This document shows positions 3,283-63,170 of a DNA stretch of 64,000 nucleotides, in pieces. The translations under genes and the position numbers were made by a program. Within the stretch, counting starts at the first letter, position 1; every line of letters starts with the position of its first letter. Below the pieces are notes generated by a model that saw only the letters and a list, made by a program, of their open reading frames with translations, had not been told where the DNA came from and made no database searches. The DNA is from Eledone cirrhosa (Eukaryota), in the NCBI GenBank assembly GCA_964016885.1, contig OZ024740.1, positions 374,914,001-374,978,000 of the forward strand. The letters are read 5' to 3'.

Positions 3283-6200
3283 ATGACCTCACTCAGAATA
3301 GGCAGCATAAATGCGCGTGGCTTGGGGTCGTCATGGAAGCAGGGCCACCTGCTCAACGATCTCAGATTACTAAAAATAGATGTAGTGGCCATCAGCGAGA
3401 CCAGAATATCCGAAGCACGGGCCTTCGCACCGATCTTCGGCGGCTACGTTGTGTACGCATCTCTCAGCCGTCCGGGATCAGGAGAGGGGGGGGGGAGTTG
3501 CTGTGCATCTTCGGAGAAGTTTGGATCTCGCCATGCAGGCCATCTTCCTGGACCCAGAAGGTAAGTTGGTGGTGCTGGACGTGACCAGCGGAGACAGGTA
3601 AGCTTACAGGCTAGTGGCCGTCTATGCCCCGACAGGAGCAGGGCGGCCTGATTTTCTTCCGGCGTCTGGATACCTTTCTTGGAACGTCCCGCTCTTTTAT
3701 GTTAGTGGGCGACTGGAACGGGATCTTAGATGCACGCTGGGACTGTGTGGTATTAGCGGATAGGGGAGGCGGGTGTGAGAGTCTCACCAACCTGCTTAGG
3801 CATTTTGAGCTGTCTGACAGGTACCGATTGGATTTCCCGAATGTGCCAATGTGGACTTGGACAAACCGCATAGGGTCATCCAGATCATATCTAGATAGAG
3901 TATTTTGTAGGGACATAGATAGGTCTAGCATAGGCTGTCCACAATTCAAGATAGTCAGCTACACGAACCACACATTCGTGATCTGTGTCCTTGACTTAGA
4001 TAGGCTTCATAGACGAGGACCCGGCTACTGGAAGCTAAACGCGTGCTTACTAGCGCGCAAGGCCTACAGAGACCGGATTAGCGAACTAGTTAAGCGGGCG
4101 TTGACGGGGGCCATCGTCAACAACAATTGGTGATTTACTCTGAAAAGAGCGATTAGGATAGAGTCCATTAGATATAGTAAAGCTTTAGCAATAGAGAAAA
4201 ATAGAGCAGAGGGACAATTAGTTAGAAAATTAGACGAGTCACTTAGCAAAGGCATCGCGACCGACGTACTTGCGCCGAAATTGGCCCCTGACCAATTATT
4301 CAATGCAAAGCAAGAAGCCTGCGTTGTCAGAGCTAGGGTGCGTGCTCTCAGACACGAGGGGACGAAAGCCGTTCAATGGGCCCGAGTGGCGGAGGCGCGT
4401 CGTGGCAACAAATCCAGGATCCGGTCTTTGGTGGGCCACGACGGGTGCATGCTACTCGATCCTGGGCAAATGTGTGAAGCTTTCCAGCGATACTTCGTAA
4501 GCTGTTCGGGGGCAGCGGCGGGCCGAATCGATGGATGGACTTTAGTGTCTACCGCGACGGACTGCCGCGGCCCTCGGCCACTGAGGAGGTGTGTTGCGAA
4601 AAGCCGATTACAGCCGCTGAAGTACTGGAGGCAATGACTGGCTGCACAAGGGGTAAATCGTCTGATTTGGATGGTCTGCCCTATGAACTTTACGTACAGA
4701 TGCCAGACTTGTTCGGAGGCCTCTTGGTGGGCGTCTACTTCAACTGGCAACAGAACGGGAGAATTCCCAGCTCTGTGAGCTGAGGAGCTTTGGCGCTGCT
4801 GAGAAAGGATCTGAACAATGGGGATAACATAGATAATTGCAGGCCCATAACTCTTCTAAACACAGAGTTCAAGATGTTGGCCAAGGTGCTAGCAAAGAGG
4901 TTGGCGCTTGTCGTTGGTGGTCTGGTGGGAGAGGCGCATACGTGCGCCATTCCCGACAGATCCATCCACGACAACCTCCACCTTATGCGATACATCGTAG
5001 AGAGGGTAGCTAGGGAACCTGGCACGGGTGGGTCCTTGATTAATTTAGATCAGTCGAATGCCTTCGATAGGGTCGACCAGCATTACCTAGCGGCAGGCCT
5101 GAGGGCTGGCTTTGGGTTCGTCTTCAGAGGCTGGATCGCTTCCATGCACAGCGACATCTGCTTTGTGGTGAGAGTGAACGGTCACCTTTCGGAACCGTTC
5201 AACATCATGCGCTCGGTCCGCCAAGGATGTCCCCTCTCGTCCCTCTTGTACGTATTGACTCTCGAGCCATTACTGCACAAACTGGAGACGTTGAGGGGGT
5301 TCCCGCGCGAACTAGGATGCGGAAGATACGTGTCAGCATATGCGGACGGTGTCACCGTAATGGTCTCGAACGCCAAACACATCGCGGCGATCGGCACTAC
5401 ACTAAGAGAATACGAAGCGGTGACAGGAGCAATGATCAACCAGAAAAAGTCAGTGGGCCTGTAGCTCGGCACCTGGAGAGGCAGGTCCATGCCGTCCAAC
5501 AGCGTCGTCGGGCGCTGGACGGACGGACCGGTTAAATTGCTAGGGGTCTGGTTCGGTACTGAAAGGCCGAGCGGAGGTGGCTAACGCGTACATTGCGTCC
5601 GTCATCTACTACCGCCTGACCGTCGTATCTTGTCCTAAGCCCCGCCTTACTGCGCTGGAGCGTTTGCTCTTTCGCTTTTTGTGGAAGGGACATGCTCCGA
5701 TGGTCAGGCGGTCCATCTTTTGTCAACACCCGCTACGTGGAGGGCTGGGCATGCTGTGGCTGATGATGCGCAGACACGCGCACAGGGTACGACATCTCCA
5801 CCTCTTCCTCGACGGTGATCAGGTGTGGTCGCTGTTTGCTAGATACGTCTTTCCCGAGCTCGTCTCCTTGACAGAGCTGCAGTCCTGGGTCACGCGAAGA
5901 TCGAGAGAGAGCGCTTGGAGACTGGAATATCCTCAGGCGCTCACAGCCCTCGACCAATCGGGAAATGTGATCGTTGGAAACTCCACCTTGGCAGTCTATA
6001 GAGGATTAGTGTGGGGGGTGGGGAGCGACGACGTACTTGGAGAAGCTCTAGGCGTCGACGAAAATCAACTAGCCAATCTCTTCGGAAAGACTTTCGGGCC
6101 GGGGCCCATGGACAAATTCCAGAAATCCCTGGCCTTGCTGTAGTGCCGATCGCCGCGATGTGTTTGGCGTTCGAGACCATTACGGTGACACGGTCCGCAT

Positions 6201-10333: not shown

Positions 10334-10385
10334 ATATATATAGAGCACTCTTTTTTCCTGGACTTTTCCGATGGAATTACTTCAC

Positions 10386-10451
<66 letters not shown>

Positions 10452-10462: not shown

Positions 10463-10504
10463 TTTCAGTGACAGCCATCTTTGGCTGTGACCTCTTCAGG
10501 CAGT
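10455..10504 (-). ncRNA. Hammerhead copy truncated at its cleavage site (3' strand of stem I absent)
   Basis: Identical to 15122-15171, but GAAATATATATA continues into (TA)n instead of GCAGT. Confidence 0.8.
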
Positions 10505-12785
10505 TTGAATTAGTATGGTATAGACAAGTACATATGTTGTTTAGGTGTATGATATTGTCAATACTCTGATATGCCCAGTTCCTTGCTGGGTTGTTAATTC
10601 ACTGGGGAACTGGAGTCATATGAATTCAAACAAACGAATTTTCGTGTCACAGGTCCCCTTCTCCTCTCATTGGTCAGTTATTAGTGTTGTCATTGTTGGA
10701 GTTAGCTTAAAAATTGATAAAATGGTAGAAGGGACAAGGTGTTGAAGGAACAAAATATCAAAAAATGTGTCAAACTTCCCATAGTTCAGTTCTGAGAGCA
10801 TTCCTCAGTCAGAAGTCTATAGAATTCTTTCTGGGGTGAGGCTCCCTGTAGTGTTTATGCCTGCTATTGTTCAGTACATTTGACCTCCACCATTATTTTG
10901 GTACTGTTGTTGTTGTAGTGGTCAGCTTATACCGTGCTGCTGCTAACAATTTAGAAGTATTCAGTTTGTGTTTTCTCTTCATCCCACCCGCCACCATCGT
11001 AGTGGTGGTGGCGGGGGGGGGGGGTTCTTTCATGTATATGAAGAAATATAAGGCAATAAATGAAGAAAACAGAAGATAAATAAATAATATAATAAAATAA
11101 AATAATTAATATAATTTGTGTAATTGAAAATAAATAAATAAATAGAGAATAAAGAATAAAGAGTAAATGAGAGATTGGTGAAAAAGTAATGATAATGTAT
11201 ATGGAGAAGTGAGGAATAATGTAGGATAAAGTGTGTGTGTGTGTGTGCTATAACCAATCTCAAGGTCAGAATATGTTGGATAGATTGGTATGATACAAGA
11301 TGTTAAGATGAGATATTCAATGTGTTTGTGTTATAATCTATCTCAACTTAAAATAAATATAAGGTTATACAGTGAAGAGGGCAGAAAACAAATAACAAAT
11401 TAATAAAGAGAAATCAAGATTTAAGATTGGAACTTTAAAGTCAGAAATCTGGTAAATTAAAAGTGTTTGTGTTATAGATGTTGGCCAGATTATTATGGCT
11501 GTGTCCGATTCTATCTCTAGGCTATCATGGTGTCTGCTCCGCCTGGGTTGTTCCCTATGGCTTGAGGGGAGTTCACAACCTAGGGTGTTGTAATTGTCCA
11601 TATAGCTTGAGGGAGGTCTGGCCGAGAGGTGTTTTCATGTTCTGTAGAAGTCCCTATAGCTTGAGGGGAGTTCACATATTCTTGTGTTGCTACTGTCCAT
11701 ATGTTTTGAGAAAGGTCCCGGTTCTAAGGTGTCTGCATGTCCCGAAGAAGTCGGTTCTGAGGTTTATCAGGCCGCTTCCACCTCTTAGTATCTCGAGGGT
11801 CTCGTTCAGGCATAGTTTGCATATGCAAGATCTCCCTTTATCGGGTGGTACTTTCCTGATTATGTACCAGGCCAGAGAGTATGGGGTCCTGTCCAGCTTA
11901 AGCTTCCAGATCAGGTCGGAGAGAGCTGTGCTTTTCCTTTTGGCCTCCTTCTTGAATGAATGGCGATGGTTGTACCAGCGGTCCTTAAAGCTCGTTGATG
12001 TGGCTCCTATGTAGAGGTGTTCGGAGTTGGGGGTTTTAACCCTACAACCGTACACTATGTTCTTCTTGAGACATTCATTACCAAGGGGGCATGATTCGGG
12101 GTTTCTACAGTTGCAGAGGGTGGGCGGCCTCTGCGTGCTTAGATTAGGGTTCTCATTATGTGTTACATGTTGGTCTTCCCCCATGCTCGGTGGGGGGTCC
12201 TTGGGTCTGTTTGTGTTTCTTGGGTGGGCTCTGGGTCCCCCCTTCCCTCCTTTCACATGGTTCTGCTGAGTGTTTGTATTGCCATCTTCTGGTTGTGTGT
12301 GCTTTTTAAGCCTACTTCTGTTGATGCTAGCTATGTGTTGGGCCAAATTTCTTGTGGTGGAATACGAAAGCTTCACAGTGTGTCTGTTGAAGATCCTGTG
12401 GTATCTGTGGTCCCTCGGGAAGCATTTGTCAAGTGCTCCAAAGAACAATCGGGCCAAGCTTTTCTTTAGGGCCGCTGAGTAGGGTGGGTTGTACCACGTC
12501 ATTTGTCGGTGTCTCCTCCTATATGTGTGGGTTGGGGGCTTCGTGATTTGTTGGAGATTTGTTGGTTTGCTGGTGGTTTCCGCACTGTTGCTTTCCTTTT
12601 GGGCTCTATACTTGTTGTTATCTTCATGGCCCGGATTTGTGGGGTGGTTGTTGTCTGCCCCGGGAGATCCATCGTGGGGTGGTCGCCCGTTTCCTCCCCC
12701 CCCCACGTGTCCTGCGGTTGGGGTTACCGTCCTGGGGTAGTTAGCATCACGCCTGAGACTGCTACTCGTATTGTGCTCCATCTCG
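10463..12785 (-). mobile_element. Penelope-like element (Neptune/Naiad-type), 5'-truncated; left arm of palindrome
   Basis: Reverse complement of 12927-15163 with scattered substitutions. Carries the GIY-YIG ORF, long 3' region and hammerhead core. Confidence 0.9.
11690..12781 (-). pseudogene. Penelope-like C-terminal region: linker + GIY-YIG endonuclease, no RT
   Basis: TWYNPPYS, KIF-like RIFNRHTVKLSYS, CNC..CPL..C, IVY..LYIGATS..FKDRWYNH, CKLCLNE, CRH motifs. Confidence 0.88.
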
Positions 12786-13170
12786 TGGTCAAGCGATCAA
12801 GGAGGAATCCCCCCCATAACAGACTAATGGAGGAGTTTGAAAACGAGATGATTAACATCATATCCAACCTCAAATTCTCCGGAAACCCAACCAGAAGTCA
12901 GGAATACCTCAGACACCTGAGAAACCGGGGCGGAGGAAACGGGCGACCACCCCACGATGGATCTCCCGGGGCAGACAACAACCACCCCACAAATCCGGGC
13001 CATGAAGATAACACAAATATAGAGCCCAAAAGGGAAGCAACAGTGCGGAAACCACCAGCAAACCAACAGATCTCCAACAAATCACGAAGCCCCCAACCCA
13101 CACATATAGGAGGAGACACCGACAAATCACGTGGTACAACCCACCCTACTCAGCGGCCCTAAAGAAAAGC

Positions 13171-13938
13171 TTGGCCCGATTGTTCTTTGGAGCACTTGAC
13201 AAATGCTTCCCGAGGGACCACAGATACCACAGGATCTTCAACAGACACACTGTGAAGCTTTCGTGTTCCACCACGAGAAATTTGGCCCAACACATAGCTA
13301 GCATCAACAGAAGTAGGCTTAAAAACCACACACAACCAGAAGATGGCAATACAGACACTCAGCAGAACCATGTGAAAGGAGGGAAGGGGGGACCCAGAGC
13401 CCACCCAAGAAACACAAACAGACCCAAGGACCCCCCACCGAGCATGGGGGAAGACCAACATGTAACACATAATGAGAACCCTAATCTAAGCACGCAGAGG
13501 CCGCCCACCCTCTGCAACTGTAGAAACCCCGAATCATGCCCCCTTGGTAATGAATGTCTCAAGAAGAACATAGTGTACGGTTGTAGGGTTAAAACCCCCA
13601 ACTCCGAACACCTCTACATAGGAGCCACATCAACGAGCTTTAAGGACCGCTGGTACAACCATCGCCATTCATTCAAGAAGGAGGCCAAAAGGAAAAGCAC
13701 AGCTCTCTCCGACCTGATCTGGAAGCTTAAGCTGGACAGGACCCCATACTCTCTGGCCTGGTACATAATCAGGAAAGTACCACCGGATAAAGGGGGATCT
13801 TGCATATGCAAACTATGCCTGAACGAGACCCTCGAGATACTAAGAGGTGGAAGCGGCCTGATAAACCTCAGAACCGACTTCTTCGGGACATGCAGACACC
13901 TTAGAGCCGGGACCTTTCTCAAAATATATGGACAGTAG
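13171..13938 (+). pseudogene. Penelope-like GIY-YIG endonuclease ORF (right arm)
   Basis: Same protein as 11690-12781 with a few substitutions; an upstream 1-bp deletion near 13010 breaks the frame. Confidence 0.88.
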
Positions 13939-15121
13939 CAACACAAGAAGATGTGAACTCCGCTCAAGCTATAGGGACTTCTACAGAACATGAAAACACC
14001 TCTCGGCCAGACCTCCCTCAAGCTATATGGACAATTACAACACCCTAGGTTGTGAACTCCCCTCAAGCCATAGGGAATAACCCAGGCGGAGCAGACACCA
14101 TGATAGCCTAGAGATAGAATCGGACACAGCCATAATAATCTGGCCAACATCTATAACACAAACACTTTTAATTTACCAGATTTCTGACTTTAAAGTTCCA
14201 ATCTTAAATCTTGATTTCTCTTTATTAATTTGTTATTTGTTTTCTGCCCTCTTCACTGTATAACCTTATATTTATTTTAAGTTGAGATAGATTATAACAC
14301 AAACACATTGAATATCTCATCTTAACATCTTGTATCATACCAATCTATCCAACATATTCTGACCTTGAGATTGGTTATAGCACACACACACACACACTTT
14401 ATCCTACATTATTCCTCACTTCTCCATATACATTATCATTACTTTTTCACCAATCTCTCATTTACTCTTTATTCTTTATTCTCTATTTATTTATTTATTT
14501 TCAATTACACAAATTATATTAATTATTTTATTTTATTATATTATTTATTTATCTTCTGTTTTCTTCATTTATTGCCTTATATTTCTTCATATACATGAAA
14601 GAACCCCCCCCCCGCCACCACTACTACGGTGGTGGCGGGTGGGATGAAGAGAAAACACAAACTGAATACTTCTAAATTGTTAGCAGCAGTAAGGTATAAG
14701 CTGACCACTACAACAACAACAGTACCAAAATAATGGTGGAGGTCAAATGTACTGAACAATAGCAGGCATAATCACTACAGGGAGCCTCACCCCAGAAAGA
14801 ATTCTATAGACTTCTGACTGAGGAATGCTCTCAGAACTGAACAATGGGAAGTTTGACACATTTTTTAATATTTTGTTCCTTCAACACCTTGTCCCTTCTA
14901 CCATTTTATCAATTTTTAAGCTAACTCCAACAATGACAACACTAATAACTGACCAATGAGAGGAGAAGTGGACCTGTGACACGAAAATTCGTTTGTTTGA
15001 ATTCATATGACTCCAGTTCCCCAGTGAATTAACAACCCAGCAAGGAACTGGGCATATCAGAGTATTAACAATATCATACACCTAAACAACATATGTACTT
15101 GTCTATACCATACTAATTCAA

Positions 15122-15176
15122 ACTGCCTGAAGAGGTCACAGCCAAAGATGGCTGTCACTGAAATATATATAGCAGT
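15122..15176 (+). ncRNA. Minimal type I hammerhead ribozyme (PLE-associated)
   Basis: ACTGC-CTGAAGA-[GGTCACAGCCA-AAGA-TGGCTGTCACT]-GAAA-TATAT-ATA-GCAGT: stem I ACTGC/GCAGT, core CUGANGA/GAAA, palindromic stem III, AUA triplet; AATAAA follows immediately. Confidence 0.85.
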
Positions 15177-15326
15177 AATAAACGAAGCTAAATTTTAATC
15201 ATTTGACTTTTATTTAACTTTATTTTACACTACTCCGGAGTAACCAAACCAACCTGCGCACTTCGTCGAGTGCTCCAGCCTGCATACTGAGGTGTTGGTA
15301 TACAACCAACATAAACTCAAAATCTC

Positions 15327-18345
<3,019 letters not shown>

Positions 18346-18362
18346 CACCACCATTTATATTT

Positions 18363-20759: not shown

Positions 20760-23254
20760 CAATACATTAACAAATGGAAACTATATTTATAAAACCATAT
20801 TTATTTCATAATACACCAGAGGAAACTAGGGTACCCTTTCATCAGATAAAATATAATATAGGTTAGTTTTATCGCAACAAATTAAATATAATTCGTTTGC
20901 AATTATGCAAACAGTCTCTTTATAAGCCATCTCAGTAGAATGAGCCCATCATTCTGGCTCTTGTGTTGGCATGCAAATAGTGATAAAGCCCCATTAATAA
21001 TAGATGTGTCAATGAATTATAAACCATGCTTTGACTCTATCCCTTAATTTCGCTTAATCCTTCAGAGACCTCATACAAACATTTCAGAATAATAATATCC
21101 AGGAAAAATCATACAAATATCAGGAGACATCCATGGTATCTGAAGAATAACACATGACCAGACTGTTATATGTACATGCTGATTTTAAATATCAACAGCG
21201 TCAATGCATAACAAAAAGTGATATATAGTGATAGGCCTCTTACGGGAGTAATTTTAATATTTTTATACGATATATGAGAATAACAGACATACGTATAATA
21301 TTAAACTAGTAAATTACACAATATATTACATTTGTCCGCGATCGTTATCTAGAATCACACTCCACAGTGATAAATCCATGGAACTATTTGAGCTTTGGTC
21401 GTGAGGGATTGCAGTACATGTCTCTGTCCTTGTGTTCTGAATTCGCTTCCCTCTTCATGGTGGTAAACACCGTATGTCTTTGGTTATGTTCTTCGCGGAC
21501 AACACCGCTGGTCTTTTGTAGAGAGTCAAACAATCCACCTGGATGTTCGTGTTCTCACGAGATATATAGAGTGTTGTGATTAACGAAAATATCTTAAACC
21601 ACCCACTTCATACATATAACGAATAGGTGATTGATACATTAAACATTAGTAGGAAAACTAGCTTATAATTTAAATGGTCACATTCGAGTACTTAATACAT
21701 ACATAGGAGATTGCTGCGCATAAGAAAACATATCCCACACAACATCCAATGTATGCCTATTTCATTAAATAACATCACTAGAGACAGAGATACAGTTACT
21801 AAATTATTCTGGTTTCTATACGTATACATACGTTTTTTGGTTCGCTTATTTATTGATATTGGAATGTTTGGATAAGCGATTAATATTTCGTATCCTTCAA
21901 ATGAATGTTTTATTTGTATAATTAAAATATATGAAAATATAGCATTTTATTGAATTCCGTTATACACAAATATGTTCTTTCTTGTAACATTGTAAATATA
22001 GGTATAATGTACTGATTAAAAATTGTGTGTAAAAATGCTCATACAGACGACGGTGGAGTGCGGGATTTATCTACAATCGATGTTATCTTTATATTGCCAT
22101 CGCAAATGATATACATGCAAATCTATTTAAGGGAACCTTTCATATAAATATAATTTTATATTCAGCCCAATTTACGCACACACACTTTCACCCAGATATA
22201 TACGTTTATATATCATTTCTATATATTGTTAACTGTGGGGTTGTTATTTCAACAGCCCGAGTCAATCAACTTTGGTTGCACTAGGATAAAGCACTCGACG
22301 ACATAAACTAATCTAAGTACGTTTTGGTAGTCCAAGGTGGCGTATACACACAAAAACTATTGGCAGAAGCCATATGAAGCTCCGCAGAATTGTATTCAGC
22401 TATTATATATATATGTATTTGCCATCAATGATTAGGTGATGTTTCAGTGGTGTGTAAAATAAGCCAAGTGATATGTTCGCCATATCCATCTGGATTGATT
22501 TCCGGAATACATTCTTTCTTATAAGTGTTCGAGGAGGAGAGGGGCAATTAGGTGATCTAATCGTTAGGGCCAAGGTGATTACAGAAAAGCAGGATAATGG
22601 AGACAATTATAATAACATTAATAAAGCGGACTAACTTTTGTTCATAGAATTAGACGTACAGATGAGGTACATAAGTGTTATGATCAGTGGCTTATCCAGT
22701 AGAGAAAACAACCGTTTTTAAAAAGGTGTATCCAATAACCTCAGTCCGGTTATTTAAGCATCACTTATTGCATGATAGGTTTCTCAGAACACATCTCCTG
22801 TGTATATATAACAGCACATCGAGCCATTTATGTAGGGTTTCAATATGTTTAGGCTCCTCTATATAATAGAGAAATATGTGGTGGTATCTTGGATATTAAA
22901 CACATGTCTTGCGAATTGTGTTTAATTTCGTTTATTGCCGCTAAGACATCAGGGACACCAAACGTTGTGCCCGATACAGTGTGTTGTATCCGATATAGAG
23001 ATACGTATAATGGAACATTTGGCTTGTTGTCGGACTGCTATGATCATGGTCCAAACTACGACGAGCATATCAAATATAACAACAACAAAAAACAACACAG
23101 TACAAATAACTCCTGCCTGATGATGACACGTCAGAAGTGTATTAGGACACGCGTCATTGATTGCTTGTGTCAGTTTACACTGTAGTAGGTCATTTATTTG
23201 ATGAAACACCGTTCCATTATTTGAATAATTATATTATGTTTATATATATATAAT

Positions 23255-56545: not shown

Positions 56546-57118
56546 CATATACAGTACAGGTCATTTAGTAAATGTGTACTTAATGGAGGTGTCACACATG
56601 TGAAAATTCGATGCTAATACACGCTGTATACATGGAGTATGAAACAAGGAAGTTTCACTTTAAAATAATTTTATTGTATATCGAATAGTACATATGTTTC
56701 GCAGATTCATATCTCGAGAGAGTTGATGTGATATATCTGACTACTCTTGACAAATGTGGTTTCAGTCAAAACATTTCCACCTCAAGGGCACACAACAACG
56801 TATATATATATATATGCCTACGGATTATCTGTTACAAACACAATTCTCAGGGCGAAACAGATTAAATCTCTAATCAGTCCGGGAGATTAATAGTGATAAA
56901 CGGTTAGTACTTTTCATTTGTTTTCCTGTATTTTCTGATCGCTTCAGGTTAAATCCTTCAAACCAACGTGGTCTCTCTACACTCGTAATTTTAAACCCAT
57001 AATTTACTGCGTTCATTACTATATATATTACACACACGCACACACACATACACACATATATATATATATATTTGTGACGAAACATAAGTCAATTGCATGA
57101 ACTCATAATCCTTTATCT

Positions 57119-57174
57119 ACTGCTATATATATTTCGATGATAGCCATTGAATGGATATGACCTCATCAGGCAGT
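57119..57174 (-). ncRNA. Minimal type I hammerhead ribozyme, solo, in a ~115 bp island between (TA)n tracts
   Basis: Minus strand: ACTGC-CTGATGA-[GGTCATATCCA-TTCAA-TGGCTATCATC]-GAAA-TATATATA-GCAGT. Confidence 0.85.
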
Positions 57175-57183
57175 TAGTCAGTT

Positions 57184-57218
<35 letters not shown>

Positions 57219-62410: not shown

Positions 62411-63036
62411 TTTCGTTTCTGAATTTGTTTAGCAAGATTCTTTATCTGAAAACGTGTGGTTGAAACCGATATTTGAATAATTTGGGAGGGTCATGTTGCC
62501 AATAGGAAACAAACACACCTCTAGTTTTCAGTCCAATTTATTATAAATTAAATTATAAATTAAAATTTTTTTAATAAATTTCCGCTTGGTTGGTTCCACA
62601 ACCGGACGATTGTTCATATATTGTCAAAGTTCTTTCGTCACACATTATTTGACCTCTTCAGTGACTGGTGATTATTTTCTTTGTTTTGTGCCTCTCCTTT
62701 GTTCTGTCCTACGTCATCTTGTTTTTGTGCGTGTTGTGTGCTTAATTTGCGCATGTTACATCCGGGTGTCTGTTTGTGTTTTTATGTGTTTATTTATTTG
62801 TTTATTTACATCTTACTGGTTAGTTGTTTGTTCTATATGTGTGTGTTTTCATTTTGTCCTTAATTGTAAGTTGTGATGTTGCTATTCCATTCATGTTTTC
62901 TATTTAATTTTGGTTGGAGTTCATTTATGTTCATTGCCTCTGTGATTTGTCTAAATATTGCGTCTTTTCTGTGTGTAGATTTTATTTTTATTTCTAAGTT
63001 CTCTAATTTGCCCTTATGTTCTATGTTAGCATGTTG

Positions 63037-63170
63037 GTGGAGTACTGATGATTAATTTCTATCTGAAAGCTCTCACCAGTGTTCATTTAATCGTTCGAAC
63101 GATTAAATTTGAACGAATAAATGAACGCTGGCGAGAGCTTCAAGATAGAAAAGAATAATCAGTACTCCAC
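63037..63170. mobile_element. Small foldback/MITE-like inverted repeat
   Basis: GTGGAGTACTGAT...GTTCATTTA vs TAAATGAAC...ATCAGTACTCCAC; inner palindrome TTTAATCGTTCGAACGATTAAA. Confidence 0.7.

Follow-up and report, generated by a model that had tools for sequence, protein, structure and literature searches.

A solitary hammerhead between (TA)n runs in Eledone cirrhosa, most probably the truncated 3′ end of a Hydra-type Penelope-like element

In the 64,000-nucleotide window of the Eledone cirrhosa genome analyzed here, an island of approximately 115 bases (positions 57071–57185) was found flanked by (TA)n on each side, with a type I hammerhead on its minus strand. A (TA)n target run together with three junction bases (57057..57073) forms the 3′ junction of the element, and a (TA)15 target run (57186..57216) forms the 5′ junction, where it overlaps the TA-like bases that belong to the element itself at the truncation point. 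The minimal hammerhead motif (57119..57174, minus strand; from sequence and folding energies) contains CUGANGA, GAAA, and UH, closed by stem I and a long stem II. Stem I has 5 bp (ACTGC/GCAGT; 57174–57170 with 57123–57119) and is followed by the core CTGATGA (CUGAUGA in RNA; 57169–57163), by a stem II of 11 pairs (57162–57136), in which pair 4 is a C.C mismatch (57159 with 57139) and pair 8 is broken (57155), and by GAAA (57135–57132), after which comes TATATATA. The hammerhead register puts the predicted cut site between 57124 and 57123. Stem III is an 8-base self-complementary stretch (ATATATAT; 57125..57132, minus strand) that is predicted by cofolding to pair between two RNA molecules. A 50-base tail (57074..57123, minus strand) leads from the predicted cut site to a short 3′ end (GTCAC), at which reverse transcription would start.

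The hammerhead between two (TA)n runs, noted in the original prediction without a strand, is real and far beyond chance: an exact 26-mer of it was found 2,883 times in the genome, compared to 0 times for a reversed control. It was compared with a second hammerhead in the window (15122..15176, plus strand), which is assigned below to a sister family (family A, the island belonging to family B). Stem I and GAAA-TATATATA were identical in the two, and the change from C-G to T-A at pair 6 of stem II as well as the retained C.C at pair 4 were both present, all as predicted. The accompanying claim that stem II keeps its fold does not fully hold for the island copy, in which pair 8 is T.C; it is G-C in most family B copies (T was found in 12 of 100). 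What had been taken for a G-U/G-C swap at the first two pairs turned out to be two one-sided changes, pair 1 being either G-C or G-U among family A copies. The flanks, described as otherwise different, do differ in the 3′ untranslated region; in the leader, which lies downstream of the hammerhead, A and B are nevertheless visibly similar. On energy evaluation, the hammerhead fold without stem III showed −6.1 kcal/mol in the island copy, compared to −12.5 kcal/mol for a fold pairing the core with stem II; the common family B form showed −12.8 compared to −14.7 kcal/mol for its alternative fold, and in family A the hammerhead fold and the lowest-energy alternative coincided. The pair-8 variant of the island is thus predicted to misfold, with its core buried. 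Folding z-scores of the island were insignificant (−0.74 and −0.91; −2.81 for the family A motif), and an Rfam scan of the window (E ≤ 1) gave microsatellite-driven microRNA matches only and none to a hammerhead.

A search of the 3.0-Gb genome gave 226 candidates, of which 40 were scored, all with 94–100% identity; the identity of the island to 39 other copies was 94–97%, and a second pattern count gave 2,940 intact family B hammerheads. By its identity to these genomic copies, the island (57074..57185, minus strand) is the 5′-truncated 3′ end of a family B element. Four of the first 30 family B loci were found to reach 1.5 kb upstream into a GIY-YIG ORF, and a near-complete copy (L171) of approximately 4.2 kb from leader to 3′ end showed the order (TA)n, partial upstream repeat, leader, ORF, 1.3-kb 3′ region, hammerhead, tail, and (TA)n. 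Both families have a single ORF with a reverse transcriptase (RT) followed by a C-terminal GIY-YIG domain, YRDD preceding YIG in L171 as well as in the family A copy L161 (894 aa); in L171, 847 aa are open and the start region sits in a different frame. Motifs were assigned by eye against the published section on the Hydra clade (Craig et al., 2021; PMC8557442). In family A, these were MRWKAF, ADKTNN, CNCRNPESC (CxCX5C), CKLC (CxxC), and CRH (CxH), and in family B ADKTNN, CNCRDPSLC (CxCX5C), CNLC (CxxC), and CRH, with RWR at the RWK position. The CCHH motif was absent in A and B, as the Hydra clade requires, and Pfam returned only a sub-threshold GIY-YIG match and no RT match. Since the two proteins are 56% identical and both contain Hydra-clade motifs, the two hammerheads are assigned to sister families of Hydra-type Penelope-like elements, a placement made by motifs. 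The extremely 5′-truncated Penelope-like element, one of two options offered in the original prediction, was thus the right one, as follows from the membership in family B, the fixed 3′ end, and the link to the ORF in long copies.

The ends of family B copies were determined in a position sample, consisting of the first 61 exact matches along contig 1, each with 5 kb of upstream sequence. In 59 of the 61 the copy stopped at GTCAC and was followed by (TA)n, in which all families studied terminate, and in full-length copies the sequence beyond this short 3′ end continues into the leader and the ORF. A second, long 3′ end is located approximately 95 bases past the first; 215 family B copies pass the first end, and 25 of 30 such copies examined stop at the second. 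Family A has the same two 3′ ends. In the seven largest clusters, the short 3′ end was found 6–8 bases before an ACTC...GAGTG motif, whatever the distance from the cut site. The 5′ ends were ragged, their distance upstream of the anchor ranging between 3 and at least 1,185 bases, with 16 of 61 at one site, and the 5′ junction of the island itself occurred 10 times in the genome, among approximately 2,900 copies. Target-site duplications are not legible within (TA)n, and no empty site was seen; contigs from four sequencing runs did not span the island.

Pattern matching for 3′ ends at the predicted cut site gave 40 matches, compared to 2,940 intact hammerheads, and nine of the 30 examined did end there; 5′ ends at this site gave the same figures (9 of 30 examined, from 40 pattern matches). 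In the remaining 21 of 30 apparent cases, the tail was kept behind a lengthened or altered TA stem (3′ ends) or hammerhead sequence was kept upstream (5′ ends), and ends defined by the cut site were accordingly rejected for both. The rarity of such ends fits the in vitro finding that the RT of a Penelope-like element starts internally, past a hammerhead that has not been cut (PMC11167929). Two family B copies with sequence extending into the leader (L172:5780–5965, nearly full length, and L189) were observed to start exactly at the predicted cut site, which could result from cut RNA or from TA microhomology.

The family A hammerhead lies within a head-to-head inverted, 5′-truncated element (10463..15326) with GIY-YIG ORF pieces at 11690–12796 (minus) and 13012–13938 (plus). 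Its right arm ends at the long 3′ end and its left arm, at 10463, exactly at the TA stem of the hammerhead, a rare third kind of end. The adjoining (TA)n contains an insert of approximately 43 bases (10344–10386), and related letters follow another family A copy (L164). The leader between tail and start codon is alike in L161:3310–3420 and L171:3290–3430, including a block just before the ATG, and this shared leader is possibly an RNA signal for the enzyme. The left-arm end, together with about 12 family B copies that end at the same place, is what would be expected if the TA stem, which matches the target, were a targeting device: the RNA, once cleaved, would terminate in UAUAUAUA, and this end would prime insertion by pairing with (TA)n DNA. 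However, only approximately 0.4% of family B copies end at the TA stem, compared to 59 of 61 that end 50 bases downstream; (TA)n is likewise the insertion site of families whose stem is ATGCGCAT, ATGATCAT, or ATACGTAT, and the Hydra elements in the literature target (TA)n yet have no TA stem (PMC8557442), so that a targeting role is highly improbable.

A unit with two fixed ends does occur in family B, with a length of 168 bases and 984 exact-pattern copies. A TCATATG lies 72 bases upstream of the core; the element sequence gives way to (TA)n at this point in 984 copies and continues beyond it in 929. This stop of 51% of family B copies at one site is the new observation of this study. Two control sites in family B, constructed like the hotspot test, showed a stop rate of 1–2%, with 11 stopping versus 660 reading through at a second TCATATG 150 bases upstream and 6 versus 651 at an 8-base TA match. 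Since the control sites rarely stop, the hotspot depends on position and not on microhomology; TA microhomology was rejected as its cause because neither the longer TA match nor the second TCATATG is a hotspot. The hotspot was also present in family A (123 bases upstream of the core; 121 stopping versus 556 reading through) and in a third family, the AAAC family (69 bases upstream; 796 versus 4,465), and it was shown for these three families only, being not visible in three other clusters, in which mixed subfamilies shorten the extensions. Comparison of 28 stopping and 42 read-through family B copies (9 of 79 left out as unclassified) showed all four common variants to be shared (permutation p = 0.74). 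One column was skewed (p = 0.01) in a similarity-biased sample but not in the position-sampled set (1 of 15 versus 0 of 24).

These data bear on the second option of the original prediction, a very small non-autonomous retroelement with a ribozyme. Under this reading the island would be SINE- or retrozyme-like, with fixed ends of its own, and copied from its own transcripts. The 10 occurrences of the same 5′ junction, the fixed 3′ end, and the 168-base class, with its two fixed ends, all speak for it. On the other hand, 10 of approximately 2,900 is similar to what other TA-like spots show (6 of 657; 11 of 671), and among 100 family B copies the short ones were no closer to each other than to the long ones. 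T at pair 8, the only common variant, was found in 1 of 12 short, 6 of 47 middle, and 5 of 41 long copies; a separate lineage for short copies was rejected because variants are common to short and long copies and the T form of the island also occurs in long ones. The 168-base class shares its common variants with read-through copies, the skewed column having come from similarity-biased sampling. Moreover, there were no tandem units (0 of 61 sampled copies continue into a next unit), and short copies do not include the hairpin present beyond the 3′ end in all families. The expectation of further homologs in the genome was thus borne out, but that of a recurring 115-base unit with fixed ends was not (10 copies); for this unit the mini-element reading is largely refuted, and we regard it as very unlikely.

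Plain random truncation does not explain two fixed ends in about half of family B. The simplest reading of the 168-base class is run-off at the RNA 5′ end, the unit likely spanning the RNA start to the first copying start. The TCATATG site resembles an initiator. It is conceivable, at roughly even odds, that the class is a strong-stop-like product: RT would start at the hairpin-marked site near the transcript 5′ end, run off at the initiator-like TCATATG transcription start 70–125 bases upstream of the core, and drop a fixed unit (168 bases in B) with the whole hammerhead into (TA)n. In Drosophila Penelope, the RNA start was mapped 46 bases before a 75-base intron (PMC2377424), and the end of the Penelope intron abuts hammerhead stem I (PMC4209133), a distance from RNA start to hammerhead similar to that from TCATATG to hammerhead here. 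A strong copying block or a splice site at TCATATG are rivals to run-off. If the strong-stop reading is true, the TA-like RNA start would let the run-off end anneal either with the target or with another copy, and the units would resemble a SINE family but, being without the hairpin, would never found a lineage; the genome would then preserve both start points of these elements, that of the RNA and that of copying, and a large part of the approximately 100,000 mismatch-bearing hammerheads would be by-products. Run-off to the RNA start would also explain fixed-length mini-elements without a separate lineage and make Penelope promoters, so far mapped mainly in Drosophila (PMC2377424), mappable from the genome alone. 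A literature search on strong-stop products with pLTR found no publication on the start-site reading.

Between families A and B alone, only one pair was truly compensatory, which is little proof in itself. Within the 1.3-kb 3′ region, however, no long stretch other than the hammerhead could be aligned (80.6% over 67 bases), and the two families differ at 89 of 149 four-fold sites. A looser hammerhead pattern detected 93,170 related motifs in the genome (229 for the control), to which families A and B add 10,064, and several related families adjoin ORFs 33–58% identical to that of A. Among 219 distinct motifs in 26 clusters, stem II position 4 was C in 212 and pair 4 was unpaired in 216, while pairs 1–3 and 5–7 were paired in 199–216 motifs with letters that vary between families. 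In 16 representatives, 13 of 15 pairs changed on both sides, including all six of stem II, a count that none of 500 shuffles reached and that is inflated by relatedness, the representatives being related and hand-picked; stem I pairing and the outer stem III pair were search conditions, which leaves stem II and the inner pairs of stem III as the only fair tests. Selection on the structure across families, as originally proposed from two copies, was thus supported, via many more families than two, and covariation was found where these representatives were included. As read from the aligned motifs, the fold covaries across related families and the C.C mismatch is kept.

The few changes between A and B (one compensatory pair), the spread of a pair-breaking variant to 12% of family B copies, and the finding that cleavage is dispensable for insertion in vitro in another element (PMC11167929) would agree with passive shared ancestry of young sister families in which the structure is not selected. 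This is opposed by the 60% of four-fold sites that differ, by the rest of the 3′ region, which does not align, and by the stem II pairs retained despite letter variation between families, and we give passive ancestry the least credence of all readings. The hammerhead has a common ancestor with that of the element at 15122, and its retention is likely due to selection on parent elements that were active.

Stem III was self-complementary in 207 of the 219 motifs, and 59 of these 207 stems were not pure TA. Its central two bases are self-complementary across families (UA, UG, CG, AU), their neighbors cannot pair within one strand, and cofolding paired stem III between strands for B:B, A:A, and A:B. 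The published table of Hydra hammerheads, nearly all of which insert into (TA)n, has no TA stem III and no C.C drawn (PMC8557442). Together with the stems that are not pure TA, this shows that the palindrome is conserved and TA is not required; of the TA loop said to be under selection, it is the 8-base self-complementary stem that is kept. The mismatch marks a radiation in the E. cirrhosa genome. The predicted intermolecular pairing is in line with the published dimer model (PMC4209133), to which the self-complementary center lends comparative support, and the family set is large enough for a proper test. Literature searches on the C.C mismatch and on hammerheads and Penelope elements in octopus returned nothing on these points, and the variants of Luense et al. 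or the figure supplements of PMC4209133 may show the mismatch. Hammerhead families with a U.U first pair that keep C.C at pair 4 were observed at L188:1260–1329, L172:8561–8630, L036:1632–1705, and L173 (near 3670–3720); a U.U first pair is found in many published Hydra hammerheads.

Other hammerheads and repeats were also found in the window. Three tandem units of approximately 510 bases (17143–18350, minus strand) each contain a different hammerhead with a short stem II and an ACTAGT stem III (17297–17334, 17808–17846, and near 18320–18350, minus strand), and this looks like a non-LTR retrozyme array. The region 62412–63000 (minus strand) is the 3′ end of another (TA)n-inserted family, and its hammerhead (62622–62665) has a 4-pair stem I, a 6-base stretch after GAAA, no C.C mismatch, and a stem II opening with the same letters as that of family A; the motif occurs in at least nine other loci. 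At 56810–56890, a piece of another high-copy repeat lies beside a TA run, and as other copies have CTGATG just upstream, this is probably a hammerhead shortened at its 5′ side. An imperfect fold-back at 63038–63170 has a CTGATGA...GAAA stretch in one arm, and a degenerate member of T-stem hammerhead families is located at 20788–20845 (minus strand).

The island is thus best explained as a remnant of a Hydra-type Penelope-like retrotransposon, comprising its last approximately 112 bases, which the element's own enzyme likely copied into (TA)n before stopping early; we assign this reading a probability of about 0.9. The GIY-YIG domain would nick (TA)n, and RT would start in uncut RNA, 50 bases past the predicted cut site and approximately 7 bases before the conserved ACTC...GAGTG hairpin, an internal start of the kind shown in vitro for another Penelope-like element (PMC11167929). 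Shortly upstream of the hammerhead, copying would then come to a halt at a TA-like spot, with a few matching bases serving to join the product to the target. The hammerhead would probably work as a dimer through the 8-base self-complementary stem. The island copy itself is likely a dead end, because it is without the hairpin and without the inferred RNA start 57 bases further upstream, and contains the variant predicted to misfold. It is an ordinary truncated copy of a new family in a known clade. The island itself is of little weight, since truncated Penelope-like elements are already known to leave solo minimal hammerheads; the covariation between families and the targeting of (TA)n have been published as well (PMC8557442; PMC4209133).

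The Hydra clade comprises C-terminal-endonuclease Penelope-like elements that are generally <3 kb (Craig et al., 2021; PMC8557442). Like these, the elements of families A and B have a single ORF with RT followed by GIY-YIG, show the RWK-type, DKT, CxCX5C, CxxC, and CxH motifs without CCHH, have a hammerhead near the 3′ end, insert into (TA)n, and occur with inverted 5′-truncated partners. They differ from the clade as published by a size of approximately 4 kb, inserts in the ORF, and the 1.3-kb 3′ region, and from the listed Hydra hammerheads by a stem II of 11 pairs in which a C mismatch is fixed at pair 4, and by the 8-base stem III; Hydra-1_Obim, listed in the same paper, is a different family. 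Thousands of solo minimal hammerheads were ascribed to truncated elements by Cervera and de la Pena (2014; PMC4209133), who had also reported covariation between families of minimal Penelope-like hammerheads. Their motifs and the present ones are alike in being type I, with a long stem II, a short stem I, a palindromic stem III, and a predicted dimer, whereas the extra unpaired base between positions 9 and 10.1 described there is absent here (in the register used in this study) and the C.C mismatch present here does not appear to be among the features mentioned there.

In the green anole element PAc Poseidon (Frangieh et al., 2024; PMC11167929), copying was reported to start internally, with cleavage dispensable, and, as is proposed here, two internal copying starts downstream of the hammerhead give the tail; the ends are not at the cut site. 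That element belongs to a different clade and its starts lie inside the ORF, 30–40 bases apart, whereas the starts in E. cirrhosa would be located in the non-coding leader, about 90–95 bases apart, with (TA)n as the target. Compared to SINEs, the 115-base unit showed neither recurring fixed ends nor a lineage separate from the coding element. Metazoan non-LTR retrozymes (Li, Clavereau and Pollet, 2026; 10.64898/2026.07.22.740005) are, like the island, short and non-coding, with a type I hammerhead related to Penelope-like ends; those elements need two or more tandem units, whereas the island is a single truncated end, continuous with a coding element.
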